From NCBI GenBank assembly GCA_964491165.1, contig CAZBFI010000001.1:1-42786 (forward strand): a DNA stretch of 42,786 bases, in the 5' to 3' direction. Positions 1 through 27,479 of the stretch are shown one piece after another; positions within the stretch are counted from its first letter, which is position 1, and every line of letters begins with the position of its first letter. The translations under genes and the position numbers were made by a program. The notes below the pieces were generated by a model that did no database searches, had not been told where the DNA came from, and saw only the letters and a program-made list of their open reading frames with translations. Source of the stretch: an uncultured Faecalibacterium sp. Lineage in GTDB: Bacteria; Bacillota; Clostridia; Oscillospirales; Acutalibacteraceae.

Positions 1-2
1 AG

Positions 3-2150: not shown

Positions 2151-5100
2151 GGTGAGAACGGCTTCTCAAAGGGTATTGTTGCCATCTTTGAGGCTCTCGG
2201 ACTTACCACCGCTTGCATGAGCCAGAACAGCTTTGATAACTTCGTTTACACTGCTGCTCCCGGCACAGATCCCGCAAATTACACAAATGAGAATAATGTT
2301 GATGTTGATGAGCTCAGTAAGGGTACACTTCCTGACGGAAGAACAAAGAGATTCGCAGAAACAAAGAACTCTCCTCTCAAGCCTCTTATGGTCGCTATCA
2401 AGGAGCTTCTTATCGGTATGGGCGATGAAGCCGGTCTTCTTGATGCTCCTCTTACCGTTCTGTTCTCAAAGCTTCCCAACATTGCATATAACCTTTACAA
2501 CTTCAAGGGCGAAAACGGAAAGAATACCTGCAACTTCTCAATTGCAGTTAAGAACCTCATTTCCCCGATCACAAAGATCCTTGAAATCGTCGATCCCGTT
2601 CTCGCAAGAGTTGTAAATCTTGACATCAACGAGCTTCTTGACTCATTCCTTGATCTCGAATCACTCGTTAATAACCTCCTCGGCAGCCTTGTTGCAGAGG
2701 GTACAGAAGCTACAAGCATCCACATCTTTGACTTTGGTAAGCTTGCAGCAGATTCATCAACTGTTGACCGTAACGCTAAAACATATCGTCACGGTGCAGA
2801 TAAATTCACTAACTTTGTCGGTTCACCCGGTAAGCTTCTCATCACTCTTGTCAGAACAATTCTCACTAAGGACGTTGTTGACGCAGTCGGCCGTCTCATT
2901 GAGGGTATCTTCAACAAGGATACCGCTGACAAGACAGAAGAAGAGCTTGAAGCCGACCAGAGAGTCAGAAACATCATCAGCATGATCTCCACAAACCTTT
3001 GCAAGGCTGACACTAAGGGTGAGCTTGAAGGCGGCGCTTATGTTGACTATCTGACAAGTATCGTAATCGACATCTTGACAGACTATGAACCCGATAACGG
3101 CGAATTCTACTTCTATGAGATCATTAACCGTGTTGACGAAGATCTTATCAAGGCAGAAGATCAGATTGCCGCTATGGGTACAGTAGACAACCCGAAATAT
3201 GCTGTTAAGCATGAAGGCTATGATTGGGATGCCGTTCCCGCAGATCCGAATGATGCTTCCAAGAAGCTTTATACTCAGGATGAAGTTGAAAAGGCAATCG
3301 AAAACATCGACTATGTTGTTCGTAAGGCTGTTCCCGCAGTTTTTGCAACTCTTCATGATGAAGGTATCATAGGCGGAAATCTTGCAGAAGAGTTCAGCGG
3401 TGAAAACGGTCTTTGGGTACTTCTTCAGGATCTCTTAAATGGTCTCATCCTTAAAGATGATGCTCTTAACACAATTACTAACCTGCTTACAAATCTCTTG
3501 GGCGCTTCAGCCGGCTCATCAACAACCGGTATTATTCAGCAGGCTCTCAAGTCAGCAGGCTTTGACATCACATTCAATGCATTCCTTTATGAAAGCGACG
3601 GCTCTAAGTCAGCAGTCTTTGATTACCTCACCTACGGCTTTAAGAAGGACGCAAGCGGTGATCTTGTTCCTGCTGCATCAGGCGGATACGATATGTATCA
3701 GCTTACAGACGGCACAGAAGCTGAGCTTACATGGGCACAGGTTTACAAGAACCACAGCTACAATGTTTATGCTTTTGATGAAAACGGCGAGCTTATTCTC
3801 AACGATGATAACACACCCAAGCTTGCTGTCGTTCAGGTTCAGAATACTCGTCAGATCGGTGATACAACCGAGTACGAGTATAAGTACACAGATGCTTCCG
3901 GCAATATCCAGAAGGTATGGCTCGCAGAAGCAGGCAAGACAGAATATGTTGTAGGCACTGACACCTTCACTCTTACAGCTTCAACTGTTGATAAGATGGA
4001 AAACGACAAGCCCGTATATGAATACGCTCTTCTCACAACAGCTTATCCGCAGGAAACTCAAGACGGAAAGTATGTCTACACTTACACAGACAGCGACGGA
4101 ATCGAGCAGACTTATACCTCAGAGTATCAGCAGCTCAAGGTTCTCAAGAGCGCTGAAAAAGACGATCAGGGTAAGGATATTTTCTATACCCTTACGGCAG
4201 TATACTCAAAAGACACCACAAAGAAGCTCTGGACATGGGGCATTGATGAAGCTGCTGACTTCAGTGCAAAGAAGAATGCTCTTCTCGACATTCTTTGGAG
4301 TGTTCTCAGCCCGTTTGCAAAAATCTTCTCAACACTCTTTGCAGGCGATGCACTCAAGCTCTTTGACAATACCCTCAACATCGAGGGCGGTTACGGATAT
4401 AAAGATTATATCCTTCCGATAATGCGTGCATTCGGTCTCGACACAATCCTCAGCAAGCTCGGTGCAGAGAAGATTGCTGAAATGAACAAGGCTCATGCCG
4501 ATGGTGATAAGATCCCCGATGCTCTTATGACCAACGATGAATATCTTGCCCTTGTTTATAACAACAACGCAGGCAGTGCTGACCGTGAGCTTGATGTTGA
4601 CGGCTTGGGTCAGGCTGTTAAGCAGATTATCAACTATGTATTCTACTTTGTTGAAATCCTTGCAACATATCCCGTTGAAACACTTAGTAACGCACTTCCC
4701 ACACTCGCTTACTTCTTGTATGCAGACGGTTTGACAACTGTTGTAAGTAACCTTCTTGTTCCCCTCACAACCTTGACAAACAGACTCAGCGAGATCATCG
4801 ACCTTGACATTAACGCTCTCGGTGCAGGTCTCATTGATATGCTTGCAACAGGCTCATGGGAGAACTTCCAACTCGCACTTAACTCGTTCGTTTATATTGA
4901 TCCCGAAACCGGTAATCTTGTCACAAATCTCGACAAGGATATCTCATTGACTTACTCGCTGTTCACACTCTTGACAAACCTCGAATTTGACCTTTCGGGC
5001 ATCGTCGGAAGTGATGATATTTACGGCGGTAAGTACGGTATCGTTCTCTTCCTTGATAAGGACGCAGAGCATCATGCAAAGGCACTCAACAAGCAGGCTG

Positions 5101-8100
5101 ATGAGCTTGCAGAGGCTGATGCAACAGCTAATGCAGATCAGATCGCTCAGCTGCGTGAAGAAGCAAGAAAGAGCCGTGCAGATGCTTTGAAGAGCTTCCT
5201 TGGTTCAATCGTTGCTCTCGGTGATCCCGTCAGCGCTTATAAGAACGAAGCTAACGAATATATCTATAATAATTACGCTGATTATGTATATGTTTCCTCG
5301 AACGGTCAGGTTAATGTAAGCAAGTCAGAAGTTGTTATGTTCCTTCTTGACTTCATCTTTGAAAATCAGACCCTCAAGGAAATTATCGGCAAGCTCCTCG
5401 GTTACGATATCACCGATGAAAACACTGCCGATGCAGAACTCCTCGATGAAATCATCACAAATGTATTCAACAATCCCGAAGTGCTTGTTGACCTTATCGT
5501 AGCTCTTCTTGTTGACTACGATGTACAGAAGATTGTTGGTGTTGAGCTTAAAACTCTCGAGGCTGAAAATCACTTCCAGTTCTATGAAGATGCAGGTTAC
5601 ACTTCACATCAGGATGTTCTCGACCACAACAACAATCTTCCCGAAGGCGAAGAAAAGGTTACAGAGATCTCCCGTGTCAAGACCTCCGCAACTATCGACA
5701 ACCTTGATAACCTTGTTGGTACAATCCTCAACCTCTTCAAGTCTGAGCTTACCAAGGAGGGCGGTCTCTTTGCTCAGTTCGGCTTGACAGCTGATGATGA
5801 TATCACTCTTCAGGCTCTCGTTGACGCTATCTTTGAAACATACCTTTATGACGATAAGGGTCTTAATGGTATCATGGATATGCTCATCGGCTTGCTCGGT
5901 GGCGAAAGCTCTGCACAGATTGTCAACATCGTTCTTGATATTCTCAAGGGTGCAGGCTATGACCTTACACCTGCAAGCTTCAAGACTAACGTTCCTCAGC
6001 TTGCCGAAACAATCGGTGACGCTAAGAAGTGGAGCGAGGTTGTTAAGAACAACTCCAAGTATGAGTATGTTGTTAAGAACGAAGACGGTGATGTTGTTGA
6101 AACACTTTATGCTGATGAAGCAAAATTAACTGAAATCACAGTTGACGGTGTTGTTAAGACTGTTACACCTGTTATGATTCAACAGCAGGAAAGCCGTAAG
6201 GCAACAGATGCCGAAGGCAAAGAATACACCGAATATAAGTATGTATATTCCGTTAAGAATGAAGCCGGCGAGCTTGTAGATACAGTAGTATGGCTCAAGG
6301 AAGCAGGCAAAACCGAATGGATTGAAACTCCTGCCGATGAAGCAACCGGCACTGCTGAGGTTAAGCATGTTGTTGAAGCTGTTATGGTTGACACAACAAA
6401 GCAGAAGACAGCAGTTAAGATCAACGCAACATGGGGTCTCAAAACCCGTGACGATTTCGTTGATATGCTTTGGAATTGCATTAAGCCTCTCGCACCGTTG
6501 TTCGCAGCACTCTTCTGCGAGGGTGATCTGACAGTATTTGACAAGATCACAATCAAGGGCGCAGCAGGTTATGAAGGCTTTGTTCTTCCCTTGATCAACG
6601 CTCTCGGTATCCCCGTACTCAAGGCTAACAAGAATGCCGACGGTACATGGTCTGACGATACATCAACAGCAAATGAAAACGAAGGCGAGCTTTACCTTGC
6701 AGCAGATAAGTATTACACTTATGATCAGTACAAGGCAGCTGTCTACGGAGCTGACGATGTATTCGGCACAGAGGATGACAATGCAAAGATTATGCTCACA
6801 ACAATCACAGATGCTCTCTTTGCTCTGGTTGATTCACTCTGCGCAAGACCCGTTGCAACACTTCTCACAATTATTCCGTATCTTGCTCACTTCATCGAAA
6901 GTGACGGCATAGATATGATCCTTTCAAATCTTCTTGTTCCGATCACAACAATCACCACAATGATTGAAAAGATTTACAAGGTAGATCTTCTCGGTATTGT
7001 TAAGGATCTCCTCAGAGGCCTTATCAAGAACCTTAATGACAATGCAGGTCAGCCGACAGACAGCACTGACCCCGCAGCTCAAGGCACAACATCGGCAGCC
7101 GCAGCAGCTTATGTTCTCACAGCAGTTGAAAATGTTGAAAGAACAAGCGGCAAGTCCGGTTTTGAGACTTCTGTTGCAGCATTGGCTGAAACAAATCCGG
7201 CTCCCGCAATTGATTTGAGCGGTGATGACAGCTCGAACTATACCTTCAAGGATATTATCGTTGAGCTTGTCAACGGCCTTTCAATCAACGGCACTAAGCT
7301 TTCATCAATCATTGATGCCGATACAGTATTCCTTGACCTTGCTTCAATCGCATGGATTCCCAAGACTATTGTTGTAGATGGTGTAGCTACAGTACAGCCC
7401 TCTCAGAAGATTACTGTAACAATTTACGAAGACAGAGCAAGCGGTGTAGCTTCAAGATCCGAGGCAACCGAATACACTGTTGACCGTGAATCCGTTCTTA
7501 TCAACCTTCTCAACGATATCGTATTCACTCCGGGCATCCGTGATCTTATCGGCGGCTTGCTGAAATATGACTTCAGCGACGAAAAGATGACAACACTCAC
7601 TGAGGAAGATTCAGAGTATCTGCTCACAGTTCTTCTTTACGGTGTGTTTGAAGATCCCGAGGCTCTTGAAAGACTTCTTATCGACCTGCTCTCTTGGTAT
7701 GATCTCGAATATCAGGATGCAAGAGTATCCAAGAAGGACTTCTCAGACATTAACTCAACATCAACTGCAATTGATTATGACGCAATCGGTCTCGACAAGG
7801 CTCAGATGGAAAAGCTTCCCGAGGACTTCGACTCTCTTATCGCTAAGATAGTTCCCGCTGTTATCGGTATGCTTCCCGATGGCGCTCTCGGTGACCTCAA
7901 GCTTGAAGGTGCAAACCTTGAAGAGATGGTTCACAACCTCCTTGCCGATCTCATGATGGATAAGGAAGTTGAGGGCTCAACAACAGTTAAGTCCGGCCTT
8001 GCAACACAGCTCGTTCAGCTTCTCGTAAGCACACTCGGTGGCAATGCAACCGTTTCCATGATCGTCGGTCTCCTTCCCTCGATTGTTGACGGAGTTGACA

Positions 8101-20100: not shown

Positions 20101-23100
20101 TTGTAAACATCACTCTTCCCAACGGTAAGCCTCTCAACATTACCAACATCATCAACATTGCCGGTGAAGGCGGTGCAGATCTTGTTGCTCTTATCAACGG
20201 ACTTATCGGCGGCATTAAGGCTTATGAGAAGATTGACGGCAAGCTTGTTGAGTATACTCAGCAGCAGGTTGAAGCTGATACTTCAGGCGCAACCTATGCA
20301 GAAGTTACGGTTAAGGACGAAAACGGTCTTGAAAGAACTATCTACTGTAAGGTTCTTCAGGTTATCAACATTCTTCCCGACGACTTCTTCGTTGACCTTG
20401 CTAAGTATGTCGTTGAAGACAGTAAGCTTAACGGCGTTGCCGTAACAACAGTCGGAAACGATGTAGACGAATGGACAATCAATGTTTCAGACGCTTTGAT
20501 GTATGTTCTTTCAATGGTTCTCGATTATGACTTCTTCGAGACAATTCTCAAGAAGGTCGGACTCGATCTGAGTCAGGGCATCGGTGAGACAATTCTCACA
20601 ATGGCTGACAAGGAAAATGAGCTTATTGACATCATTGTAATGCTCCTGAATGATTACAAGGTTGTATATTCAAAGATTGAACAGCCTGTTCTCACAGATG
20701 CAACAACTCCGTACAGCTCATTCGGTAAGGATGAAAGCGGTAAGGATCTGCTCAACAATGGAAACACATCAAAGGCTATCGCAGCTCTTGATCCCATTCT
20801 CAACACGGTAATTGCAATGCTTGCCGACGGCAAGACACTCGGCGGTCTTGTTAACGGACTTGTTGCAGATGCCGATCTTGCAAACCTTATCATGAACGCT
20901 CTTGTTCCCGTACTTTCAGGACTTGACCTCGATGCAATCCTCAAGTATGTCAACGAGCTGACAAATATCAACCTTACAACTCTCGATCCTGCACTTTGGA
21001 CAGAGAATGACAAGGTTAACTTCGGTTCACAGCTTAAGAACTTCATCAATGCAGCAGCAGACCTTGACGGTGACGGCAAGCTCTCCTGGGCAGAGGTTGA
21101 AGCATACTATACTCAGTATGAATACACATACACCGTTCCCGCAGTCGGTACAGAAGGCGCAGAAGGTTATGTTGCAGCTAAGACCGAAACAGTCTTCAAG
21201 CCCGCAAACACAGCAGAAATCACTGTTGGCGAGGGCGAAGGTGCAAAGACTTATGCACTCACTCCGGTTTATACCTATGAGTACACCTACCTTGATGCAC
21301 AGGGCAATACTCAGACCTATTACTCAGCAGAGAAGAACCTGACTGTTGCTGATGTTGACAACAACGCTGAAACACCCGATGTTGCAGTAGCTTATGTTGA
21401 CAAGGCTCAGAACAGCAAGATGCTCAGCGAGTTTGACTGGAAGATTGACGATCTTAACGATCTCATTCCTCTTGTCTGCGATCTGCTCCAGCCCTTCGAC
21501 ATCATCTTCCAGATTCTCCTGTCAGGTAAGCCCATCATCGCTCTTGAAGACGAAACAGGCAACCGTGCAGATGTCAGAATCATGGGTGGCGTCGGCTACA
21601 ACTATGCAATCATCCCGCTTCTTGAGGCATTCGGAGTTTCCGAGCTTAAGACACAGGCTGAATATGATGCACAGGTAGCTGCTGACGGCTCATCACTCAA
21701 GTATATCCTTGAGGTTCTCATCGGTGAAGTTAACGATATTCTCGAAACTCCGCTCAATGAGCTTCTCTCAAGACTTGCTAACCTCTTCTACTTCATCGGC
21801 AGTGACGGTATCAACACCATCGCCGATAACCTGCTCGCTCCTCTCAACACTCTCATTGCCGAGGTTGACGATCTCTTCCCGTTGGCAATCAGAATTGATG
21901 TTGCAGCAGACAGCATTCTCCAGACTTACCTCGGTAAGGCACACGACGGCGTTCCGGCAGGCATCACAGTCAATGTTTCCGGTGCTGACCTTGCAAAGCT
22001 TATTAACAGCTTGATTGATGAAATCGTAATCGGTTCAACAACAATCAATCTCAGCCTTGACCTTAACTGGACAGCACTCGCTGCTAAGATGGCTAAGAAG
22101 GATACAGACGGAAAGATTCTCACAACAGGTACAAAGCAGGTATACAATATCGGCACTGTTAAGAATCCGGAGGCAGCTGACCTTGTAAATCTTACAGGCG
22201 ATGCAGCTAACGCAATCGTAACGCTCCTTGACACAGTTCTCACTAAGGACAACTGCGAGAACATTTATAAGCTTGTTGACAGTCTCCTTCCCGCAGACTT
22301 CGATGCAACAATCAGAGGTCTCATCATGGATATCGTCGGCAGTGAACAGTCCATTAAGGGCGTTCTTGCAGCAGTCGTTCTCCTGTTGACCGGTGCTTAC
22401 GATGTCGAAACTCTCGACTATGTATTCAAGTATCTCGGCGTTCTCAGCTTTGCAAAGGCTGACGATGCTAAGACAGCAATCGCAAGTCTCGATAAGGCAC
22501 TCGTTAAGGCAGTTCCCGTGATTATTGAGCTTCTCGGTAAGGGACAGACAGACCCGAACAATATCCTTTACAAGCTTTACAACGGCACAAAGGATCTTGA
22601 GGGCGGTTCAAGCCTTACAAACATTGTTAACTATCTGCTTAATGACCTGCTCTTCACAACTGATATGATGAGCACAATCACAGGCGCACTTCTCGGTATC
22701 CTCAAGGGTCTCAGCGCTGACCTTGTCGGCACACTCAAGGATATCCTCGGAATCGATCTTGCTCCCGTTGCATTCGCAGCAGCATCCGGTAATGCTGAGC
22801 TTATCAGCTATGTCGGCAATGCTGAAACATGGGCAGAGGTTGCAGCCGCACACGGCACAGAAGTTCCTGTATACGAAGCAGACGGTGTAACTCAGGCTAA
22901 GAATGAGGACGGCTCACCGAAGACTAAGACAGTCTACGATCCCGTATTCGCAAATGCTGACGGTAAGAACGCATTTGTCGGCGCTCTTCTTGACCTGCTC
23001 AAGCCTCTCGAAAGCATTCTCGCATTCCTTCTTACAGGCGAGGATCTCACAATCACAATTGAGAATAACGGTGAAAAAGCAACTCTTACTCTCAAGGGTG

Positions 23101-26100
23101 GTAACGCATACGAAACAGCTATCGTTCCGCTTCTCTTACAGGGTCTCGGACTCGAAGAGATAAAGACCGGCACTAACAAGTCCGTTGTTAACGGTGCAAC
23201 TGCTGTTGACAACGCAAACGATGCAATCAAGGCAACTCTCGATTACATTCTCGTTGACCTTCTCGGTGCAATCGAAAAGGCTCCGATTTCAACAATCCTC
23301 ACAGTTGTTGCAAACCTCGGCTACTTCATTGCAAACGACGATGTCGCAGTTGTTATCCAGAACCTTATTGCTCCGGTACTCGGTATCGTTGATGCACTCG
23401 GCGGTGTAATCTCAAGAGCTCAGCTTGACGCTCTCATCGAAGGTCTTGTTAAGGTAGAGCTTCCCAACGGTAAGAAGCTTAACCTTACAAACATCATCAA
23501 CATCGCAGGCGATAACGGTGCAATACTTGTCGATCTCATCAACGGCTTGCTTCCCTCAATCGAAATGAAGGATCCTGCAACCGGCGAGGTAATCGGTGTT
23601 GTTAATGCACTTCCCAACACATTCTTTGTTGATCTTGCAAAGGCAGCCGTTAAGGTTGTTAAGCCGACAGGTAGCCTTGCAGTCGGAACAGCTGTAACAG
23701 AGTGGACAACAGATAACGGCGGCGCTATCATGTATGTTCTTTCAACAGTTCTCACAACTGACTTCCTCAACATTCTCTGTGATATGCTCGGACTTGAGCC
23801 GACAGACGCAGAGGGTAATGAGAACATGGTTTACAACATCATCATGTCACTTGCTGACAGTGAAGATGCAGTAATCGACCTTCTCCTCATGCTTCTTAAC
23901 AGATACCTCGTTGAGTATAAGGGCTACAACCTGCCTGTACTCGATAAGATCGATGTTAAGTATTCATCAGAAGCCGACCACAAGCAGTTCAATCAGGTTA
24001 TCTCCAACCTCGACGGACTCATCCCCGTTCTCCTTGATCTTCTTATCAAGCCGGACGAAAACGGAAATAAGGCTTCAAATCTCGCAGATATCGTTTATCC
24101 GTTGTTCGTCAAGGACGATATCGCAAACATGCTCGTAAGTGCAATCGTTAAGCTTCTCGCAGGTCTTCCCGCTGATACACTTACCATGATTGAGGGTTAT
24201 GTAAACGATCTTACAAGCCTCAAGAACGGTAGCGACGCATCAGGCAACGAAACCTTCAGCATTGCACCCGCAGCATTCAAGAACGGCAAGTTCGGTTCTA
24301 AGCTCGCTGCTTATATCGGCAACGCTCAGACATGGAATGATGTCTGGATGGCTCACAGTGCAGAACAGGTTAACGCTGAGACAGGCGAAACAGAAAGAGT
24401 TGCAACAGCTTACGCTTGGGGCATCTCAAAGACTGATGATCTCATCAATCTTGTTTCCGACTTCTTAATGCCTCTTGACTGTGTACTCAGCCTTCTCCTT
24501 CAGGGCGGTATGGTAAGAGCTGACTTTGACGCAAATGACCCGAACAACACCTTCGTCGGTAAGACACTCTCCGTATTCGAAGAAATCGCAATCAGCGGCG
24601 GTAGCGGTTACAACTACGCAATCGTTCCCTTGCTTGAATTGCTCGGCATCACACCTAAGACTCAGGAAGAGTACGATGCTTATGTCGCAGCACATAACGG
24701 CAGCACCTTGCATTATGTACTTGTTGCAATCTTCGATAAGGTTGACGAAATTCTCGCAGCTCCGATTGAAAATGTGCTTGATATGCTTGCTAACATCTGT
24801 TACGCACTCGGCACAGGCAGCATTGCAACAATCGTTGAGAATCTCATCGCACCTATAAATCATGTGATTGAGGCAGTTGATCCCATCTTCCCGATCGCAA
24901 TCCCGATTGATATCGGTGCACTCATCAACGGCGGACAGCTTGAAACTTACCTTGGCAAGTCACATGAAGGCATTGATGCCGGCATTACCTTCAAGCTTGA
25001 GGGTAACGACATTGCAACGCTTCTTGAAAACATCATCGCAGGCATTGCAATCGGTGGCACAGCACTCAATCTCTCAGTTGATTTTGATTGGATCACTCTT
25101 GCACGCGCCGCAGCAGCAGATGCAAACGGTGACGGTAAGGTTGACTTCAACAGATCGGTAATGAATGGTAAGTGGGATATCTACAACGGCGACGCTTATA
25201 AGAACCTTGTTGCAGATCCCGGTGACACATTCGTAACCTTAATCAAGACAATTCTCACTAAGGAGAATTGGGAAGCTATCAAGAAGGCACTCAACATCAA
25301 CTTGGGCGACTTCGACAGCATCATTGAAGATATCATCAATGATCCCACATCAATCATCGGTCTTATCGGTCAGCTTCTCAACGGCGGTTCAGTAAATTAC
25401 ATCCCCGTTCAGAACAGAAAGGTTGAAGTTAAGAGCTATAACTACACAACCTACCTGTACATGACAGAGCAGAATGCCGATATCATCGCAGCAAATATTG
25501 ATAAGCTCATCAATGATATCCTTTCAAAGACAGACTTCGGCTCACTCAAGGGTCTTGTCGGCGGCTTACTTACCAATGACCTCGCATCTAACCTTGTCGG
25601 TATGATCACCGGCTTGCTCGGCGGCGACAGCATCAGCGGTATCCTCAGCACAGTCGCAGGTCTCACTTGCGGTGAAGACGCAATCCTCGTTGTATACGAC
25701 GCAGCAGGCAATGTTCAGCCTCTCAATCTTGACCTTACAGTTCAGGGTTACGCTGCAAAATATGCAACATACAAGAACGCAAATGTTGAATTTGCTAAGA
25801 GACTTAAAGCAGCAAACACATGGGCAGATGTTGATGTATCAGGCATCAACTGGGGTGTAAACGGCACAGTCACAAGCTTTGCTAACGCACTCGCTTCAAT
25901 CCTCAATCCTCTTAACAATGTTCTCGAGCTTCTTCTTATCGGTGAAGGCAAGACACTCGGTGTACTTCCCGGCAAGGACGAAAACGGCAACTATGTCAAG
26001 GATGAAAACGGAATGCCCACTTGCGTTGCAAACATCAAGGGTGGCAACGGTTACGATTACGCAATCATTCCTCTCCTCGAAGCATTCGGTCTCAAGGCAA

Positions 26101-27125
26101 GCGAGGTTAAGAACATCGCAGCTTATAAGAACAGCTTCAATGCAGATAATGCTCAGCTCATGGGTTATCTCCTTGAAAGAATCGGCTTCTTCGCTGACAG
26201 ACTTCTTAACAAGCCCGTTGACGGACTTCTTACAATCCTTCCCAACGTTGCATACTTCATTGCAAACGAAGGTGTTGGCCTCGTCGTAAGAAACCTCATC
26301 GCTCCCGTATATTCAATCCTCAGCGTTCTCGGCATCGACCTGATGTCCGTACTCAACATCAGTGACTTGCTCGGCAGCATCGAAATTCCCATCAACCTGC
26401 TTGGTGAGAAGCTCGGTCTCCACCTTCCCAACATTGATTGGATGAAGCTTGCACAGGAAGGCGCATCTGAAATCGTTGAAGTTGCAACTTCACGCTCACA
26501 GGCTGCTAACTCCTATGTAAACGAGCAGAGAATCAAGAATGCAAATGACCTTGCTAATTACATCAGCACATATCCCGAAGCACCTTACGGTTCAAGACCT
26601 AACAAGACAACTCAGACCAATATCGTAGCAGATAAGGGTGACGTTCTTACACTTGTATTCACATGGCTCTTCGAACTGTTCGAGGATAAGGATAATCAGG
26701 AAGCTCTTGTACAGTGGATCGTTGCAACCTTCAATCTCCAGTCCGGTGCTGAAGAGACTGTAAGATATGCTATCAACCAGCTCTTCCTCAAGGCTCAGAT
26801 CTATAACGCACCTGACATCATCGTCGGTGGTCTCTTCTCAGCTCTCGGTATCGCAATCATTATCGACAACGCTCTCAGAGGCAACATTGCCGAGGTACAG
26901 AAGATCTTCAAGGAGCTCTTCGGTGCAGCCGGCAGCGGCGGATGCTCATACGCAAGCATCGCTAAGATCATGGAAGATCTCACAGGTGTTTGGGATGTTA
27001 CAATCGGTTCAGATGACGACCATCAGGGTGCAGTTGATGATGCAGAAGAGACACTCAACTGGTTCCAGAGACTTCTTCAGAAGATTAAGGACTTCTTCGC
27101 TAAGATCTTCAGCATCTTCAAGTAA
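3..27125 (+). CDS. giant acidic modular repeat protein, 5'-truncated by the window (9,040 sense codons visible); function unknown
   Basis: One stop-free frame runs from nt 3 to the TAA at 27123-27125. Codons 3-44 (DILAACGTYSTENN) are in frame without a stop. No Shine-Dalgarno precedes the ATG at 45. The first residues align to the middle of the internal repeat unit, so the true start is upstream of the window. The whole body is tandem 480-750-aa units. A strong terminator follows. Confidence 0.9.
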   Translation, partial: DILAACGTYSTENNMGVTVSSITHSGLTIWQYIFEPIVYWMENVLFVSPVKTIAELLPNLLTLLEYDQLLPKLKNIVVDINAIVKPVGITVNIDVTVLNLSEIIMPLLEGLGLNAETMKTGISGLLAALLGGTRTTNYNKDEDASWLMKVEKVTKEDEFGNKVTTNVTSDIYPAQWKASDGKIYYIKNPGLLTSALYGMMLNADDPATAEENETLNNAFLDWMFMNGGSVAQVPLQIPVNRFMSTGSLRGGDHPNNEYATIQGVFDGNIKNYHIYSDPGATLLTLLRWLLNDGTLDILMPLLEGLITPTKNADGTESSILDTIVPIIDGQADTLMAIIICLLNDYVINFEAFQDPAQDTENWGKWNAEGTEFTGFLNKDGSSKFTVGKVLEEYLSQKNVNITADELASKNYTDADLIAKADLAVANADKLINSLITTIVVALEGTLMNIDIVRDLGLGDIIDQMKQSIADVGVAKVTLEDIVSEVVISNELVDLIMNLVFGDGLPKQATDANGNKIQAKSDSATMTLDGKTYYIDAGTENGEPVVDADGYPVYVSATNKVVDEEGNETDELEFAVNEGILAGLMGDPNSILVKVLDALGQFNLDITPAGFYKLFTDNSTSAYNTQLAAWLKAQAVKHNNGVDIANNDVYDYIKDNMTWGNVRAPKGTKWFEEDGDMSVRFDNFGEMLCDLLAPLNPILGFLLSGQDILLFDELKLQGENGFSKGIVAIFEALGLTTACMSQNSFDNFVYTAAPGTDPANYTNENNVDVDELSKGTLPDGRTKRFAETKNSPLKPLMVAIKELLIGMGDEAGLLDAPLTVLFSKLPNIAYNLYNFKGENGKNTCNFSIAVKNLISPITKILEIVDPVLARVVNLDINELLDSFLDLESLVNNLLGSLVAEGTEATSIHIFDFGKLAADSSTVDRNAKTYRHGADKFTNFVGSPGKLLITLVRTILTKDVVDAVGRLIEGIFNKDTADKTEEELEADQRVRNIISMISTNLCKADTKGELEGGAYVDYLTSIVIDILTDYEPDNGEFYFYEIINRVDEDLIKAEDQIAAMGTVDNPKYAVKHEGYDWDAVPADPNDASKKLYTQDEVEKAIENIDYVVRKAVPAVFATLHDEGIIGGNLAEEFSGENGLWVLLQDLLNGLILKDDALNTITNLLTNLLGASAGSSTTGIIQQALKSAGFDITFNAFLYESDGSKSAVFDYLTYGFKKDASGDLVPAASGGYDMYQLTDGTEAELTWAQVYKNHSYNVYAFDENGELILNDDNTPKLAVVQVQNTRQIGDTTEYEYKYTDASGNIQKVWLAEAGKTEYVVGTDTFTLTASTVDKMENDKPVYEYALLTTAYPQETQDGKYVYTYTDSDGIEQTYTSEYQQLKVLKSAEKDDQGKDIFYTLTAVYSKDTTKKLWTWGIDEAADFSAKKNALLDILWSVLSPFAKIFSTLFAGDALKLFDNTLNIEGGYGYKDYILPIMRAFGLDTILSKLGAEKIAEMNKAHADGDKIPDALMTNDEYLALVYNNNAGSADRELDVDGLGQAVKQIINYVFYFVEILATYPVETLSNALPTLAYFLYADGLTTVVSNLLVPLTTLTNRLSEIIDLDINALGAGLIDMLATGSWENFQLALNSFVYIDPETGNLVTNLDKDISLTYSLFTLLTNLEFDLSGIVGSDDIYGGKYGIVLFLDKDAEHHAKALNKQADELAEADATANADQIAQLREEARKSRADALKSFLGSIVALGDPVSAYKNEANEYIYNNYADYVYVSSNGQVNVSKSEVVMFLLDFIFENQTLKEIIGKLLGYDITDENTADAELLDEIITNVFNNPEVLVDLIVALLVDYDVQKIVGVELKTLEAENHFQFYEDAGYTSHQDVLDHNNNLPEGEEKVTEISRVKTSATIDNLDNLVGTILNLFKSELTKEGGLFAQFGLTADDDITLQALVDAIFETYLYDDKGLNGIMDMLIGLLGGESSAQIVNIVLDILKGAGYDLTPASFKTNVPQLAETIGDAKKWSEVVKNNSKYEYVVKNEDGDVVETLYADEAKLTEITVDGVVKTVTPVMIQQQESRKATDAEGKEYTEYKYVYSVKNEAGELVDTVVWLKEAGKTEWIETPADEATGTAEVKHVVEAVMVDTTKQKTAVKINATWGLKTRDDFVDMLWNCIKPLAPLFAALFCEGDLTVFDKITIKGAAGYEGFVLPLINALGIPVLKANKNADGTWSDDTSTANENEGELYLAADKYYTYDQYKAAVYGADDVFGTEDDNAKIMLTTITDALFALVDSLCARPVATLLTIIPYLAHFIESDGIDMILSNLLVPITTITTMIEKIYKVDLLGIVKDLLRGLIKNLNDNAGQPTDSTDPAAQGTTSAAAAAYVLTAVENVERTSGKSGFETSVAALAETNPAPAIDLSGDDSSNYTFKDIIVELVNGLSINGTKLSSIIDADTVFLDLASIAWIPKTIVVDGVATVQPSQKITVTIYEDRASGVASRSEATEYTVDRESVLINLLNDIVFTPGIRDLIGGLLKYDFSDEKMTTLTEEDSEYLLTVLLYGVFEDPEALERLLIDLLSWYDLEYQDARVSKKDFSDINSTSTAIDYDAIGLDKAQMEKLPEDFDSLIAKIVPAVIGMLPDGALGDLKLEGANLEEMVHNLLADLMMDKEVEGSTTVKSGLATQLVQLLVSTLGGNATVSMIVGLLPSIVDGVDIELKDFKKVNAAFNAYFADYNTWAEAYEGLKSVKKYVASTDSTADVPAHDADNNLYATDANGKPVAEYALDENGAKIPVYANGNKVTDDWGSEWYTSAGTPATDDEQPLENTYVVKTADGKIVYGYQYELVLKDTDSFGVKNYDDILELVSQILAPFAPIFRFLLTEDDLVLLDGVHLTGGDGYDRFIIPLFEVLGVDNYIGSDKFLDKHAFAALDNTAFTAKVVEYIDAVISMVVNTPIQTIVDLVPELVFFVYSDGLAQAVEQFVAPLLTLIDMVNDITAKEIEIQGREDKLVALDIVALITDLVNNGIMTPNKLAEIDGFYGDNGLITRVLSGQGLEELLQGLLTNANTYIYAYEYTVPADSAVEGSTDTVVTVYLDSAELDGTDYQPDSEKTGTYTLTAVHEKNKTPISLGLDKDADGVVDAEQITGIFKWLIQKIAKVEKVDTVRYFGADGAGNNRKVWGVVANRADTLVQVISETLLGGNMITSLLETFGVKLDGTVQTILDAVTGENRYVIFQVLLKYFNEYDVETMVMDYLSFEKVEYAYDTYVEGTNLTQRKLRRAIKKLDGSILTVIPELVPILAENELVKTLLEKIGGYHGQSLKDLVHELLEAYVFNDETMNSIMGLLVGLLGGESLEGTLATVLPLVRDIVDIDITPYGFYEATSSDAIKAYMKEAFDAFPSAPVVDGDGNPVLESDGTPKLTTIENDFTWKDLADYYTKYVYTYNEVTTTTKYEYTYEKDGVTEHYYVESKIEDTTKLVITIDGVDYALTASMNGENQVTKDFYSYNTISKYSSDSDLNGTPVEGVDGKTWFAYEQATDENGNLLWYDEANGIPTAKTVDVTDENGTVIGTEMVRATRVNALNGEEAFDWGIDSAENYEGRKDAFIDVFAGILVPLEGVLNFLLRGESLRILPDESGNGEVLEFYGNNGYDNVIVPLFKALAVDQFGTIMSTDEYVAGKNSAVTLTAITDGIFTILEALTDGPIEYLLTLLPSLSYFISCNGPEIILNNLLSPILALLNLADPIVGDLLDDLLGKTLSGVFGAYMPDDIKYEIATDYKSPVYAEVEEGVDADGNAIMVKVPATDNGKTVIFKDKTYYITAGDGNVIDGEYVVTTTTDAEGNTIPVFETYKSYALTDLLKICGENGDNLIKIINGLVGPLLLGNDATDAEIAAFEILPATFFEAYAEHAITINKAGAGASYYYWYENAEGKLVKIAQDYYDVSMGEIKAARYVVDWFKVDIADSAVYLLDSVLSESLLREIAKLANIDVDDSSNILGVILKNLIEGKFNGLVVADIITALFENYTITYNELYGEYIVPNHDHLNNISADDQAKAERVPAQLDTIIEEALPIVAPILSDLFAPKDGKEPTIINDIFDNYATIADDEAVADLYEIVEYLLDDMIWSDEMVNTIAALIVNLVGDGGVIGTVLDYVGVTGIKLDPQNYLATVKKAYGAKAEMNEAVAALAGIIGTAETWADVVKNDTTPLYAYEYVSGKNDKDEDIKTTVYLADASLDGEAYTVAEEDYILAAVKDADGNHVVKAEFNVDGVADITWGVNAATDKKDAFIKALAVIVEPLFPVLQLVLQGKILTLVGHDKASYEPVNMFEYDADGAAHKVIDDSRTGNEIGNGYIELMGVNGYEELLVPILDAVGGLEAFGAYSADNTDGIMTAAEFCSINNAYDMLAYIVNVVFGFVNKLVANPFEYLATYLPSLLYFIGSDGVYNAIQSVLQLVNALIAIVEPLIGSDGIKLSDTLSLPLDLKMLKLEDTVVIENVFNAETGVNEEKKTTIKGLCSMINDLLPGSTAFKLTKDMILKLAGYLGEYKVIDTVRSTASTALVKYDAETGSMVYVDKDGNVISDANPAEKNKITTIVGNTKYTLTGLLQFALADGLVGSIVDTSTVTGILKTILDNVMGEDATANVSAVIIKLLNKYVVEYKAIEEPAEALSNVGVDYTKYGVEHADVQTALQNLQNLIPGVLSLLNLGSVQDLVADNLYTDKLVNGIINLFIGLLGGFDENTWNLVVDILGYVRDIVGIDIDITPAHYAENAVLADFINAVEKRVDEQGNELELTWADVAKHYTKYEYRYKVEDAKPATETEAATDAKYVTVYFANADLDGQKHIPTEGTYAGKEFTLEKVETVKYEYKYTVVENDTSVEKTFVSDESDLTEYKVGDATYVVTYVGEVRTHNNKVESDFVWGLADIAELNGKADKLVDILAALLSPLDDLLALLLSGGVYESDGTEYGDSLGAFKEINIMGGSGYNYAVIPFLEALSVPAASIKSQAEYEASIETDGALGYILKTVLHTVNDNLDTPLDFVLGLFANLAYTVSKNGLTTIVSNLIAPLSELIKAVECVIPVAIKIDLMALIDGGSIAEILLGDEVELKNAEVGLTLDLDGDTLEALVAKLIAKYLSGFDIIVDFEDIASKTAKLDETGNIIYSDSKVDPKWDNCVGTPGKNIEGDPSATIVTLLTMLITPENVEALLKMLNVDLSTLPAELVTIINNAIDNPDALIGAIIKLLASNYELDSALTMIFYFLGESEYDYSSVDGGKNAVEKAIAKFDKMVNNLIPKILKLLGNDLETPVAIIADIYNGLGEDAANANIKTIVDYLLNDLVFNDKMMNTLLTLVVGLLGGMDANTFATVANIVKEVLHIDITPAGIAAISKTEGGKIAAFIESHVTDETTLDELTWNDITAAHQYYEYRYKTKDAVGTEGSEGYVAAEYATVHFADANLDGTDYTVDSKTYKLEAVVNDKDERVTKTVLDEAWNVTDKDSFLGILYEITAVIEPLLAFLFKGEDINIIIDDLHLVGNNGYENAIVPLAKALNIDINENAGSFENANDMLKEVINGIFGLVEKVEAAPISTILELVGTVSYFVANNGVEIVLKNLITPVTSLVSLFGEVVTMDDVNALLKKYINISLDEITGIAGEDGSKLVSLINGLLPKVEVVGEDGAVRVIEPLPAKFFEIMSSYAISYDSLTAAQKNDENIRKLAVNNWSVKKADVLMYLLATVFTDDFLTLIAKLANLEAGTMIGDVVLGLAGDEDVVINLISMLLNEYKLVYNKYAQIDITKINVDPKAPLTDENLKQAIQAIDGLVPALIGLFVKDADSLAGLVENLVAGADLGNLLMNMLVPVLSGLDLEEILGYVKEFSNLDIKLDASAWASADSSIAAFIKAADDLDGNGEISWAEVEAFYTQYEYTYTVPAVGVEGEEGYVAAETVTVFKPAGTTTITVGEGESAKTYDLVAVNKYEYTYEAVKADGTTETKTIVLDKAGLTETTIGDETVQLTYSKAIQNSKMVSEYNWNIKTFDDLKDFVVELLKPLDVVFEILLSGGEIVAIPDNKPDVEPYPAQITIRGGEGYNFAIIPLFEALGATGLKTQAEYEAQAAADGSHLKYVLDVLFAEVETILDAPITELLSRLANIFYFIGNNSINTLADNLLAPVNTLLDKIYEVFPISIAIDVNKLGVAGASVLDTEFGTAKKGLPSGITVNVEATGLATLLNDLLAGIEINGAKLGLSLELNWIEIAAKMAKTANADQQSVTGAAIEKFASSMDYDAYEGVIGTTEYADGKYYNIKGDVVDTFVTLLQVILTSDNTEAIKNLVTGLLKDAPTEVKDILNDILSDPDAIEKLIGVVVLLLTGESDLSGYPFEFVYKFLGKLDFNYRSNEIESAIGKFDKMIAREAVSVIKLLGTPAADVAEADYSFFNKMAVALDDGDSLADIVAWLLGEFAFTGANFDGLMAIINNLLADAITAELADIISTILPINLMPYAYANASGNAQLIAYVAKAIPAGADEDAKNAVTWADVRNANATSTTVDGKTTWTYNESWNVEGKDAFVNTLLDLLKPLNPILDFLLTGKNLSFTIDGVEIWGADGYANAIVTLLNALGAKQFGIDVPATAETSTEAIGYIIDVLLGKDVTELKGEPAIETTVHVNGLVDVICEAPLTSILTIVGNLSFVIANNNLAPLLKNLLAPVLGIVELAESLISMEQLDALIAGLVNITLPNGKPLNITNIINIAGEGGADLVALINGLIGGIKAYEKIDGKLVEYTQQQVEADTSGATYAEVTVKDENGLERTIYCKVLQVINILPDDFFVDLAKYVVEDSKLNGVAVTTVGNDVDEWTINVSDALMYVLSMVLDYDFFETILKKVGLDLSQGIGETILTMADKENELIDIIVMLLNDYKVVYSKIEQPVLTDATTPYSSFGKDESGKDLLNNGNTSKAIAALDPILNTVIAMLADGKTLGGLVNGLVADADLANLIMNALVPVLSGLDLDAILKYVNELTNINLTTLDPALWTENDKVNFGSQLKNFINAAADLDGDGKLSWAEVEAYYTQYEYTYTVPAVGTEGAEGYVAAKTETVFKPANTAEITVGEGEGAKTYALTPVYTYEYTYLDAQGNTQTYYSAEKNLTVADVDNNAETPDVAVAYVDKAQNSKMLSEFDWKIDDLNDLIPLVCDLLQPFDIIFQILLSGKPIIALEDETGNRADVRIMGGVGYNYAIIPLLEAFGVSELKTQAEYDAQVAADGSSLKYILEVLIGEVNDILETPLNELLSRLANLFYFIGSDGINTIADNLLAPLNTLIAEVDDLFPLAIRIDVAADSILQTYLGKAHDGVPAGITVNVSGADLAKLINSLIDEIVIGSTTINLSLDLNWTALAAKMAKKDTDGKILTTGTKQVYNIGTVKNPEAADLVNLTGDAANAIVTLLDTVLTKDNCENIYKLVDSLLPADFDATIRGLIMDIVGSEQSIKGVLAAVVLLLTGAYDVETLDYVFKYLGVLSFAKADDAKTAIASLDKALVKAVPVIIELLGKGQTDPNNILYKLYNGTKDLEGGSSLTNIVNYLLNDLLFTTDMMSTITGALLGILKGLSADLVGTLKDILGIDLAPVAFAAASGNAELISYVGNAETWAEVAAAHGTEVPVYEADGVTQAKNEDGSPKTKTVYDPVFANADGKNAFVGALLDLLKPLESILAFLLTGEDLTITIENNGEKATLTLKGGNAYETAIVPLLLQGLGLEEIKTGTNKSVVNGATAVDNANDAIKATLDYILVDLLGAIEKAPISTILTVVANLGYFIANDDVAVVIQNLIAPVLGIVDALGGVISRAQLDALIEGLVKVELPNGKKLNLTNIINIAGDNGAILVDLINGLLPSIEMKDPATGEVIGVVNALPNTFFVDLAKAAVKVVKPTGSLAVGTAVTEWTTDNGGAIMYVLSTVLTTDFLNILCDMLGLEPTDAEGNENMVYNIIMSLADSEDAVIDLLLMLLNRYLVEYKGYNLPVLDKIDVKYSSEADHKQFNQVISNLDGLIPVLLDLLIKPDENGNKASNLADIVYPLFVKDDIANMLVSAIVKLLAGLPADTLTMIEGYVNDLTSLKNGSDASGNETFSIAPAAFKNGKFGSKLAAYIGNAQTWNDVWMAHSAEQVNAETGETERVATAYAWGISKTDDLINLVSDFLMPLDCVLSLLLQGGMVRADFDANDPNNTFVGKTLSVFEEIAISGGSGYNYAIVPLLELLGITPKTQEEYDAYVAAHNGSTLHYVLVAIFDKVDEILAAPIENVLDMLANICYALGTGSIATIVENLIAPINHVIEAVDPIFPIAIPIDIGALINGGQLETYLGKSHEGIDAGITFKLEGNDIATLLENIIAGIAIGGTALNLSVDFDWITLARAAAADANGDGKVDFNRSVMNGKWDIYNGDAYKNLVADPGDTFVTLIKTILTKENWEAIKKALNINLGDFDSIIEDIINDPTSIIGLIGQLLNGGSVNYIPVQNRKVEVKSYNYTTYLYMTEQNADIIAANIDKLINDILSKTDFGSLKGLVGGLLTNDLASNLVGMITGLLGGDSISGILSTVAGLTCGEDAILVVYDAAGNVQPLNLDLTVQGYAAKYATYKNANVEFAKRLKAANTWADVDVSGINWGVNGTVTSFANALASILNPLNNVLELLLIGEGKTLGVLPGKDENGNYVKDENGMPTCVANIKGGNGYDYAIIPLLEAFGLKASEVKNIAAYKNSFNADNAQLMGYLLERIGFFADRLLNKPVDGLLTILPNVAYFIANEGVGLVVRNLIAPVYSILSVLGIDLMSVLNISDLLGSIEIPINLLGEKLGLHLPNIDWMKLAQEGASEIVEVATSRSQAANSYVNEQRIKNANDLANYISTYPEAPYGSRPNKTTQTNIVADKGDVLTLVFTWLFELFEDKDNQEALVQWIVATFNLQSGAEETVRYAINQLFLKAQIYNAPDIIVGGLFSALGIAIIIDNALRGNIAEVQKIFKELFGAAGSGGCSYASIAKIMEDLTGVWDVTIGSDDDHQGAVDDAEETLNWFQRLLQKIKDFFAKIFSIFK
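2151..4385 (+). repeat. giant-protein unit 1 (long, B-like)
   Basis: Core GENGFSKGIVAIFEALGL (2151-2204). Post-core LPNIAYNLY...KNLISPI. Ends with a 171-aa Tyr/Thr-rich cassette (3729-4241). Confidence 0.8.
4386..6557 (+). repeat. giant-protein unit 2 (long, B-like)
   Basis: Core GGYGYKDYILPIMRAFGL (4386-4439). Post-core LPTLAYFLYADGLTTVVSNLLVPL. Also carries the MLIGLLGGESS and YDLTPASF blocks. Confidence 0.8.
6558..8636 (+). repeat. giant-protein unit 3 (long, B-like)
   Basis: Core GAAGYEGFVLPLINALGI (6558-6611). Post-core IIPYLAHFIESDGIDMILSNLLVPI. Confidence 0.8.
8637..10886 (+). repeat. giant-protein unit 4 (long, B-like)
   Basis: Core GGDGYDRFIIPLFEVLGV (8637-8690). Post-core LVPELVFFVYSDGLAQAVEQFVAPL. 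Also LLVGLLGGESL and DIDITPYGFY. Confidence 0.8.
10887..13010 (+). repeat. giant-protein unit 5 (long, B-like)
   Basis: Core GNNGYDNVIVPLFKALAV (10887-10940). Post-core LLPSLSYFISCNGPEIILNNLLSPI. Also ILPATFFEAYAEHAI and ALFENYTITY. Confidence 0.8.
13011..14876 (+). repeat. giant-protein unit 6 (B subtype)
   Basis: Core GVNGYEELLVPILDAVGG (13011-13064). Post-core YLPSLLYFIGSDGVYNAIQSVLQLV. Also KLLNKYVVEY, LFIGLLGGFDE and DIDITPAHY. Confidence 0.8.
14877..16532 (+). repeat. giant-protein unit 7 (A subtype)
   Basis: Core GGSGYNYAVIPFLEALSV (14877-14930) followed by KSQAEYEASIETDG. Post-core LFANLAYTVSKNGLTTIVSNLIAPL. Also the AIAKFDKMVNN block and LVVGLLGGMDA. Confidence 0.8.
16533..18173 (+). 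repeat. giant-protein unit 8 (B subtype)
   Basis: Core GNNGYENAIVPLAKALNI (16533-16586). Post-core LVGTVSYFVANNGVEIVLKNLITPV. Also PLPAKFFEIMSSYAI and MLLNEYKLVY. Confidence 0.8.
18174..19718 (+). repeat. giant-protein unit 9 (A subtype)
   Basis: Core GGEGYNFAIIPLFEALGA (18174-18227) followed by KTQAEYEAQAAADG. Post-core LSRLANIFYFIGNNSINTLADNLLAPV. Also AIGKFDKMIAR. Confidence 0.85.
19719..21584 (+). repeat. giant-protein unit 10 (B subtype)
   Basis: Core GADGYANAIVTLLNALGA (19719-19772). Post-core IVGNLSFVIANNNLAPLLKNLLAPV. Also LPNGKPLNITNIINIAGEGGADLVALINGL and MLLNDYKVVY. Confidence 0.85.
21585..23096 (+). repeat. giant-protein unit 11 (A subtype, close paralogue of unit 9)
   Basis: Core GGVGYNYAIIPLLEAFGV (21585-21638) followed by KTQAEYDAQVAADG. 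Post-core LSRLANLFYFIGSDGINTIADNLLAPL. Confidence 0.85.
23097..24596 (+). repeat. giant-protein unit 12 (B subtype, close paralogue of unit 10)
   Basis: Core GGNAYETAIVPLLLQGLGL (23097-23153). Post-core VVANLGYFIANDDVAVVIQNLIAPV. Also LPNGKKLNLTNIINIAGDNGAILVDLINGL and MLLNRYLVEY. Confidence 0.85.
24597..26048 (+). repeat. giant-protein unit 13 (A subtype)
   Basis: Core GGSGYNYAIVPLLELLGI (24597-24650) followed by KTQEEYDAYVAAHNG. Post-core LDMLANICYALGTGSIATIVENLIAPI. Confidence 0.8.
26049..27122 (+). repeat. giant-protein unit 14 (terminal, truncated A-like unit)
   Basis: Core GGNGYDYAIIPLLEAFGL (26049-26102). Post-core LTILPNVAYFIANEGVGLVVRNLIAPV. GDVLTLVFTWLFELFEDKDNQEAL aligns to the VDTFVTLLQVILTSDNTEAI block. 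The protein stops after the helix that aligns to the FDKM block of A units. Confidence 0.7.
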
Positions 27126-27159: not shown

Positions 27160-27194
27160 AATTCCCCACTTCGAAAGAGGTGGGGAATTTTTTG
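27160..27194 (+). terminator. rho-independent terminator of the giant gene
   Basis: Perfect 10-bp stem AATTCCCCAC (27160-27169) / GTGGGGAATT (27180-27189) with a 10-nt loop, running into a T-tract (27188-27193). It starts 35 nt after the stop codon. Confidence 0.85.
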
Positions 27195-27479
27195 CGTTGC
27201 CTTTCTTGGTCTTATGGCGTTGCCGTTCTTTAAGCAGGTAATTGGAAAAAGCGTGCGTATAGATGAGCTTAAAATGTGTTGTAAAAAGTGAGCGTAATCT
27301 CGCCCAAAAAGAGACAGCAATACCCATCAAGAAGCATTTTGACAGCGTCAGAAAGCTTATGACTTTTCTTTTCATCATGGAAAGCAGTGTACAACTTATC
27401 CGGCAGGGGAGAATTACGGGAAACAGACATTATTATTCTTGCAAAAGCCAAAAAGCTCTGCCGAAAAAAACACAGAACG

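Follow-up and report, generated by a model that had tools for sequence, protein, structure and literature searches.

A giant gene from an uncultured gut Oscillospirales bacterium encodes at least 15 tandem copies of an undescribed large module and may specify a tethered surface fibre

Giant secreted repeat proteins are a known kind of protein. In the classic giant beta-repeat adhesins (Bap, SiiE, LapA and RTX proteins, with repeats such as Big, cadherin-like and Flg_new), the repeats are beta-sandwiches of 60-110 amino acids (aa). The modules of Ebh from Staphylococcus aureus measure ~126 aa, combine a FIVAR with a GA domain that Pfam recognises, and belong to a protein anchored by a transmembrane segment. 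S-layer and MBG domains are found in the giant proteins of gut megaplasmids, and gut Oscillospiraceae encode RCC1-type giants that consist of beta-propeller repeats of the RCC1 type (PF00415; West-Roberts et al. 2023 preprint, doi 10.1101/2023.11.21.568195). Here, another giant protein is described from an uncultured Faecalibacterium sp. that GTDB places in the Acutalibacteraceae. Its gene lies in contig CAZBFI010000001.1 of assembly GCA_964491165.1, of which positions 1 to 42,786 were analysed (the window, 42,786 nucleotides (nt) in full). The product is made up of 15 or more tandem, divergent and collinear copies of one module of ~480-750 aa. This module, which may be a new fold, is undescribed and unusually large; the C-terminal tail of the protein is likewise undescribed. 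A literature search returned other classes of giant protein (the RCC1 type and the megaplasmid S-layer/MBG type) and no description of this repeat family.

The giant gene is a single open frame on the forward strand (nt 3-27125, at least 9,040 codons), the 5' end of which is cut by the window edge. The first in-frame ATG, at position 45, opens 9,026 codons, another 14 open codons lie upstream of it, and the stop codon is at 27123-27125. The residues ahead of this ATG begin with DILAACG, the tail end of the core block of the repeat. Because the window starts inside a core block, the most N-terminal unit (U0) is cut, the gene continues upstream and the full protein exceeds 9,040 aa. The window start is probably the end of the contig, and a metagenome scan aimed at the missing 5' part of the gene gave no match. 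The visible part of the protein has a mass of 977.5 kDa, is very acidic (pI 4.2) and is enriched in Leu, Ala, Asp, Val and Ile.

An earlier inspection of the bare DNA (the sequence-only reading) had claimed at least 15 homologous units that share one ordered set of blocks, to be told from chance, non-collinear matches by self-comparison. A profile of the whole unit (596 positions) tiles the 9,026-aa translation with 15 successive matches of 474-757 aa, each of them one collinear alignment over most positions (57-544 bits). In a leave-one-out analysis, every unit is recognised by the profile of the other 13 (131-360 bits, E = 3e-42 to 2e-111), and the unit profile has no match in the reversed sequence or in 20 locally shuffled copies. 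BLAST of the whole protein against itself returned the identity match only; pieces of 400 aa were used instead, and these gave many off-diagonal matches to the whole protein, with E values down to 1e-119. These comparisons confirm the claimed array. The core motif in its strict written form matches 3 sites only. Since the blocks are degenerate, profiles were used in its place, and a profile of the sequence that surrounds the core detects 14 complete cores along with one partial core at the N-terminal edge. Nearly invariant across the units are the core motif, G-x-x-G-Y...P-L-L-E-A-L-G, and the N-L-x-A-P block, and the consensus of the aligned units runs through the nine blocks in the order proposed.

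The units follow one another on the forward strand. The truncated U0 (3-1778) starts in its own core block and matches profile positions 149-484 at 57 bits. It is followed by U1 (1779-4049; 757 aa, core G-x-x-G-F at 2151), U2 (4050-6218; 723 aa, core at 4386), U3 (6219-8294; 692 aa, core at 6558), U4 (8295-10538; 748 aa, core at 8637), U5 (10539-12563; 675 aa, core at 10887) and U6 (12564-14519; 652 aa, core at 13011). Next come units of two subtypes, A and B: U7 (A, 14520-16187; 556 aa, core at 14877), U8 (B, 16188-17840; 551 aa, core at 16533), U9 (A, 17841-19385; 515 aa, core at 18174), U10 (B, 19386-21269; 628 aa, core at 19719), U11 (A, 21270-22802; 511 aa, core at 21585), U12 (B, 22803-24269; 489 aa, core at 23097) and U13 (A, 24270-25691; 474 aa, core at 24597). 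In the terminal unit, U14 (25692-27122; 477 aa, core at 26040), the first two thirds fit the unit profile and the remainder is a C-terminal domain that is conserved across relatives. The 14 core positions listed by the sequence-only reading are all in frame and all carry the core; 13 start exactly at G-x-x-G-[YF], and the last, given as 26049, is 9 nt late relative to the start of its block at 26040.

The spacings between cores had also been given correctly, and they bear out a shrinkage of the units toward the C-terminus, from 745 aa to 481 aa core to core (Spearman rho = -0.91, p = 1e-5). Part of this shrinkage can be followed in the variable cassette, which extends from the T-W-A-[DE]-V block to the W-[GN] block that follows and which shrinks from 169 to 11 aa toward the C-terminus. 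The unit bodies, with lengths derived from the spacing and the cassette lengths, shrink as well, from roughly 580-630 aa to 430-500 aa; the cassette therefore accounts for only part of the gradient in unit size. The cassettes are composed of beta-rich mini-modules of 45-55 aa with the pattern x-Y-E-Y-x-Y ... T-x-T-V ... L-T-E ... Y-x-L-T-x-V, such that one repeat is nested in another. A profile of the mini-module has 14 matches (nt 3867-21392), with zero to two at each junction and none at the last three; a cassette of two mini-modules is seen, for example, at 17688-17978 on the forward strand. One copy of the mini-module (aa 3040-3090) is located inside U4, away from any junction.

Compared in pairs, the units are 17-29% identical in the N-terminal half of the protein and 17-43% overall. 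From U7 to U13 the two subtypes alternate, with U7, U9, U11 and U13 of type A and U8, U10 and U12 of type B. Units of type A are 31-43% identical to each other and those of type B 37-42%, compared with 20-24% between the types. The self-BLAST and the pairwise identities thus define an A/B super-repeat of ~1,120 aa per pair (14520-25691, forward strand). This alternation accounts for self-matches at an offset of ~1,120 aa and implies that two-unit blocks of that size were duplicated to give this half of the protein; because orthologs show the same alternation, it is old. The canonical EF-hand pattern is present in two loops, at aa 5865-5876 (nt 17637-17672) and aa 7006-7017 (nt 21060-21095). 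These loops, D-L-D-G-[ND]-G-[EK]-[IL]-S-W-A-E, directly precede the T/S-W-A-E-V block in the B-type units U8 and U10, and from this position the eighth block is read there as the exit helix of a calcium loop. D-x-[DN]-x-[DN]-G motifs number 6, relative to 1.2 expected, and the Pfam EF-hand scores fall just under their cut-offs (25.8 vs 25.9 bits for EF-hand_5 and 23.7 vs 25.4 bits for EF-hand_1). The EF-hand loops are isolated and are not the basis of the architecture of the giant protein.

The unit alignment, searched as a profile against sequence databases as the sequence-only reading had suggested, defines a large family that has no name and in which the tandem units measure about 420-750 aa. 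An exhaustive search of 1.84 billion representatives returned 638 proteins at E <= 1e-3, including 376 at E <= 1e-30. Many of these relatives are 2,000-7,700 aa long with 5-17 matched stretches, and those looked up are unnamed or annotated as 'hypothetical protein'. A word-index protein search returned 7 unnamed proteins, all C-terminal fragments at contig ends, and so underestimates the family; many of the database entries are likewise fragments of larger genes, with most copies at contig ends. A genome scan, in which the C-terminal alignment was run against a single genome for each GTDB species, found 78 loci, all in metagenome-assembled genomes, and places the family in about 60 gut and rumen Oscillospirales species. 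The loci are labelled Acutalibacteraceae, Oscillospiraceae, Ruminococcaceae, 'Faecalibacterium', Eubacteriales or Clostridia, with the closest ones labelled Oscillospiraceae or Acutalibacteraceae, and derive from cattle, sheep, goat, roe deer, water buffalo, rabbit and human gut. As far as sampled, the family is confined to gut and rumen Oscillospirales. The best locus is 79% identical over the terminal unit. In ~57 species the frame is open and tiled by units across the entire 10-kb flank upstream of the C-terminus, with 7-9 profile matches in each flank (~7-8 units). The gene is split into two overlapping calls in two metagenome scaffolds (L004, ~5526-5556, and L003, ~2784-2809); the split in L004 coincides with a run of N.

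Individual units have orthologs of their own. Collinear, one-to-one orthologs are found for U8-U14 in the loci L005-L010 (57-80% identity) and for U3-U14 in the relative P0008 (58-77%), and U2-U14 match the units of P0009 nearly in order at 31-51%. Since identity between orthologs far exceeds that between the paralogs within the array, the array is old, and each position has been maintained separately, with no concerted evolution. The genes that neighbour the giant gene in the window are syntenic in the closest loci at 56-85% identity, which indicates that the giant gene is chromosomal and vertically inherited. Most of the representatives with a complete N-terminus have a signal-peptide-like start and 450-1,400 aa ahead of the first unit; complete relatives contain an N-terminal region of ~700-1,300 aa and 5-13 units, and Pfam has no match in four of their N-terminal regions.

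To view single and consecutive units, as had been proposed, structures were predicted with AlphaFold2. The model of U13, built on a unit alignment of 31 rows, has a mean predicted local distance difference test score (pLDDT) of 74 and a predicted template modelling score (pTM) of 0.57, with residues 40-300 at pLDDT 80-93. For U12 and U13 modelled together (966 aa, 19 rows), the pLDDT is 75.7 and the pTM 0.61, and the model consists of 52% helix and 12% strand. Both modelled units share the same succession of elements: a hairpin cassette, a long helix that corresponds to the ninth block, a hairpin that ends in the G-x-x-G-Y turn, a bundle of long helices, a mixed section of helix and strand, and further helices. 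The description of the units as mostly non-beta thus holds as far as helix predominates, whereas the strands of the two-unit model and the beta-rich mini-modules of the cassettes show that they are not purely non-beta. The junction between U12 and U13 (residues 471-560) is among the most confident parts of the two-unit model, at pLDDT 77-90, compared with 45-69 for the same segment when the preceding unit is absent. Similarly, the last third of a unit is predicted at pLDDT 30-70 without its successor and at 65-90, mostly above 70, with it. This gain in the presence of a neighbour suggests that consecutive units pack together, and of the two arrangements envisaged earlier, the models point, faintly, to a continuous fibre over beads on a string.

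No known family accounts for the module. In a Pfam search of the whole giant protein (E <= 0.1), no Ig-like or beta-repeat adhesin domain was found (Big_1-Big_13, cadherin-like, Flg_new, fn3, MucBP), nor FIVAR/GA, RCC1 (PF00415), cohesin/dockerin or HEAT/ARM/TPR; the sub-threshold EF-hand matches were the only ones. The earlier statement that the units are unlike the Ig-type repeats of classic adhesins is in agreement with this result, since no Ig-like or other Pfam domain is present. NCBIfam has no match to the giant protein, a profile search of Protein Data Bank (PDB) sequences returned nothing at E <= 1, and PHROGs gave one weak match, to a family of unknown function (E = 2e-4 over 50 aa). 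Two Foldseek searches of the PDB returned nothing significant (best E 3.3 and 0.95, template modelling (TM) scores of about 0.1 or lower), and the best E value against the BFVD viral models was 0.5. The module is thereby shown to belong to a large unnamed family without a relative in Pfam, NCBIfam, PHROGs or PDB. The top, non-significant matches of the two-unit model were HEAT- or ARM-type alpha-solenoids (CAND1, exportins, RRP12). Alpha-solenoids share a long helical architecture with the giant protein, but their period is ~40 aa rather than ~500 aa and the units described here include beta hairpins; a HEAT, ARM or TPR solenoid was rejected because of the missing Pfam match, the Foldseek E values of at least 0.95 and the low TM scores. 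A phage structural protein was also rejected, given the weak PHROG match, the BFVD result and neighbours that are housekeeping and sugar-use genes, as was a cellulosomal scaffoldin, given that no cohesin or dockerin match is seen and that the protein has no more than two loops of canonical EF-hand pattern and six D-x-[DN]-x-[DN]-G motifs.

Among the closest described systems, Ebh and the Streptococcus Mrp-like FIVAR-GA proteins resemble the giant protein in outline: all are near-megadalton proteins with tandem, mostly helical modules and a presumed rod shape, and a signal peptide and a C-terminal retention element are probable here as well. In contrast to Ebh, the module is four to six times larger, mixes helices with hairpins and is not recognised by Pfam, and the protein ends in an amphipathic aromatic helix rather than being held by a transmembrane segment. 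With the classic beta-repeat adhesins it would share the form of a long secreted repeat protein that projects from the cell, and Flg_new, fn3, MucBP and Big_2 proteins of the same genomes share its C-terminal tail. Unlike in those adhesins, no beta-sandwich domain is detected, and the only beta elements noted are the 45-55-aa mini-modules between the units. The RCC1-type giants are comparable in that they are giant, predicted to be extracellular, built of a single repeat type and found in gut Oscillospiraceae (doi 10.1101/2023.11.21.568195), but RCC1 is not matched here; the gut-megaplasmid giants, with their S-layer/MBG architecture, differ as well.

The C-terminus is the other conserved feature of the family. 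Nearly all members end in an aromatic amphipathic tail that is conserved to the last residues. In the window, this tail is LNWFQRLLQKIKDFFAKIFSIFK (27054-27122, forward strand); its helical hydrophobic moment is 0.66, a value reached by 0.05% of shuffles, and within the window the giant protein alone carries it. The consensus is E-E-[ST]-L-N-W-F-Q-[RK]-[IL]-[IL]-K-K-I-K-[DE]-F-F-A-K-I-F in the subfamily of the window protein and P-N-G-F-I-x-F-F-Q-K-I-x-x-F-F-K-K-I-x-x-F-F-K-N-L-F in more distant members. At 14 loci of the genome scan, only the last 26-40 residues of the query are matched, and the genes there (L069-L081) encode proteins without unit repeats. The complete ones are 1,478-2,026 aa long, plus one of 411 aa, and those scanned carry Listeria-Bacteroides (Flg_new) repeats, fn3, MucBP or Big_2. 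At the locus of the complete relative P0013 (L083), two large proteins encoded just upstream of the giant gene (1-4363 and 4689-9692) end in Cys-flanked variants of the tail, and a 119-aa secreted protein encoded just downstream (27691-28050) ends in another variant; a similar small secreted protein with the tail follows the giant gene at L017 (7107-7487), and the small proteins of this type that adjoin giant genes measure 119-149 aa, those right downstream 119-126 aa. Because unrelated adhesin-like proteins of the same bacteria share the tail, it is read as a surface tether of a modular kind. Neither NCBIfam nor Pfam has a model that matches it, and a profile search with the tail returned tiny unnamed fragments only. 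This lack of a model, together with its spread over unrelated secreted proteins, suggests that it is perhaps an unrecognised surface-retention or sorting signal. A sortase substrate was rejected, as the C-terminus, read directly, has no LPXTG motif and matches no NCBIfam sorting model. The exported enzymes PBP5 and PBP6 of E. coli have C-terminal amphipathic helices as anchors. Like these, the tail is a terminal helix of ~20 residues with a high hydrophobic moment on a protein that is probably exported through Sec. It differs from them in having no sequence relation, in being rich in Phe and Trp and in occurring in a monoderm lineage, and its target binding is putative. The most hydrophobic stretch, APDIIVGGLFSALGIAIIIDNAL (26808-26876, forward strand; aa 8922-8944; 23 residues, Kyte-Doolittle 19-residue mean 2.1), is ~80 residues ahead of the C-terminus, is conserved in close relatives and is the sole segment near the end with strong hydrophobicity; it may either span the membrane or form a buried helix.

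The explanation that we favour, at a probability of about 0.55, is that the giant protein is a Sec-exported, envelope-tethered and semi-rigid surface fibre of an undescribed family. By analogy with the complete relatives, it would be exported, with a Sec signal peptide at its start followed by ~700-1,300 aa free of repeats. Its mostly helical modules, with their short beta hairpins, would interlock end to end into a long, semi-rigid fibre, and the C-terminal aromatic amphipathic helix would hold this fibre at the cell envelope, in the manner of anchors such as that of E. coli PBP5. As a surface stalk or an adhesin, the protein would then probably present its distal N-terminal region at a large distance from the cell. 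That each unit position has been kept individually in evolution fits a structure of defined length or one with position-specific contacts. Several points weigh against this explanation. The signal peptide is taken from relatives that are 34-37% identical in the shared part; no LPXTG, SLH or other known anchor is present, and the tail fits oligomerisation or sorting equally well. The structure models are of moderate confidence with shallow alignments (31 and 19 rows), and the rod-like packing is drawn from their pLDDT and pTM values. A comparison of loci across the family revealed no conserved neighbour or operon partner of the giant gene, and no named homolog points to a function. A further-reaching version, which we put forward tentatively and expect to fail in some part sooner than to hold in all, is that the ~500-aa module is a new fold, that its copies interlock into a fibre of at least 1 megadalton with a fixed, position-specific order of units that serves as surface stalk or ruler, and that the Phe/Trp-rich tail is an unrecognised, lineage-wide envelope-retention signal for many secreted proteins.

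The tail is also where an alternative can be built. The protein may be exported but released, as an extracellular matrix or scaffold protein or a large effector, with the C-terminal helix serving oligomerisation, sorting or secretion. A recognised wall or membrane anchor is indeed missing, the tail on the 119-149-aa secreted proteins beside the giant gene would fit a common assembly or sorting tag, and the pI of 4.2 and the few calcium-loop motifs are common in extracellular proteins. However, the high moment and modest hydrophobicity of the tail are as expected of a surface-seeking helix, the tail sits on typical adhesin-type architectures that are normally cell-bound, and no toxin or enzyme domain was found in the giant protein or in the N-terminal regions of its relatives, such that a released protein appears unlikely. 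A second alternative concerns the units, each of which could be a ligand-binding module, for plant or host glycans or the surface of another cell, in an array that is a multivalent platform and not mainly a spacer. Conservation of each unit position as its own ortholog is compatible with this proposal, as are the near-invariance of the core motif and the N-L-x-A-P block, the life of the hosts in fibre-degrading gut communities and the glycoside hydrolase genes nearby. Yet the near-invariant residues are Gly, Pro and hydrophobic ones, as is usual for structural turns and cores rather than for binding sites; searches by sequence and by fold gave no carbohydrate-binding, cohesin, dockerin or lectin-like match, and the neighbour genes are not conserved across the family. 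We consider such a platform distinctly improbable.

The remaining alternative is that the array is an artefact, whether a misassembled repeat, a pseudogene or a chance recurrence of low complexity. The gene does run off the end of the contig or window, and most database relatives are fragments at contig ends. An artefact is nevertheless effectively refuted by the 27-kb frame without a stop codon, by collinear orthologs in dozens of independent assemblies and by the empty shuffled and reversed controls, and the units are too divergent to mislead an assembler. Because the units are only 17-43% identical, because no tandem repeats were found in the giant gene at the DNA level and because a terminator follows the stop codon, the giant gene is genuine and no product of misassembly.

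Oscillospirales are abundant in the human and ruminant gut and largely uncultured, and their contacts with fibre, mucus and other cells are poorly known. A family with hundreds of members, each gene of which occupies 10-30 kb in a small genome, and which has no name, domain model or PDB or viral fold match, is a sizeable annotation blind spot, and its giant genes break metagenome assemblies. With a module ~5 times the usual size of an adhesin repeat, and with each copy its own ortholog, the family offers a good system in which to study how long, ordered fibres are built and maintained. If the tail is a new surface-retention or sorting signal, it would help to predict the surface proteome of these bacteria.

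The giant gene is followed, 35 nt past its stop codon, by an intrinsic-terminator-like hairpin on the forward strand (27160-27199; a 13-bp stem with 6 G-C pairs, then a T run), which sits between this gene and a convergent gene for a GDPD phosphodiesterase. The genes downstream are ordinary chromosomal ones and encode, besides the GDPD protein, a protein with SH3 and C39-like peptidase domains, GH3 and GH2 enzymes, a major facilitator superfamily sugar transporter, an aldose epimerase and others. At a distant complete relative (P0021; L084 and L085, 2804-9352), a YfhO-family protein and two CotH-family proteins are encoded immediately ahead of the giant gene and on its strand, an arrangement not seen at the other loci examined. 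Finally, the SH3/C39-like protein near the giant gene of the window (28514-29470, reverse strand) is secreted and combines two bacterial SH3 domains with a peptidase domain of C39-like or papain-like type, and its gene is syntenic in relatives at 53-66% identity.

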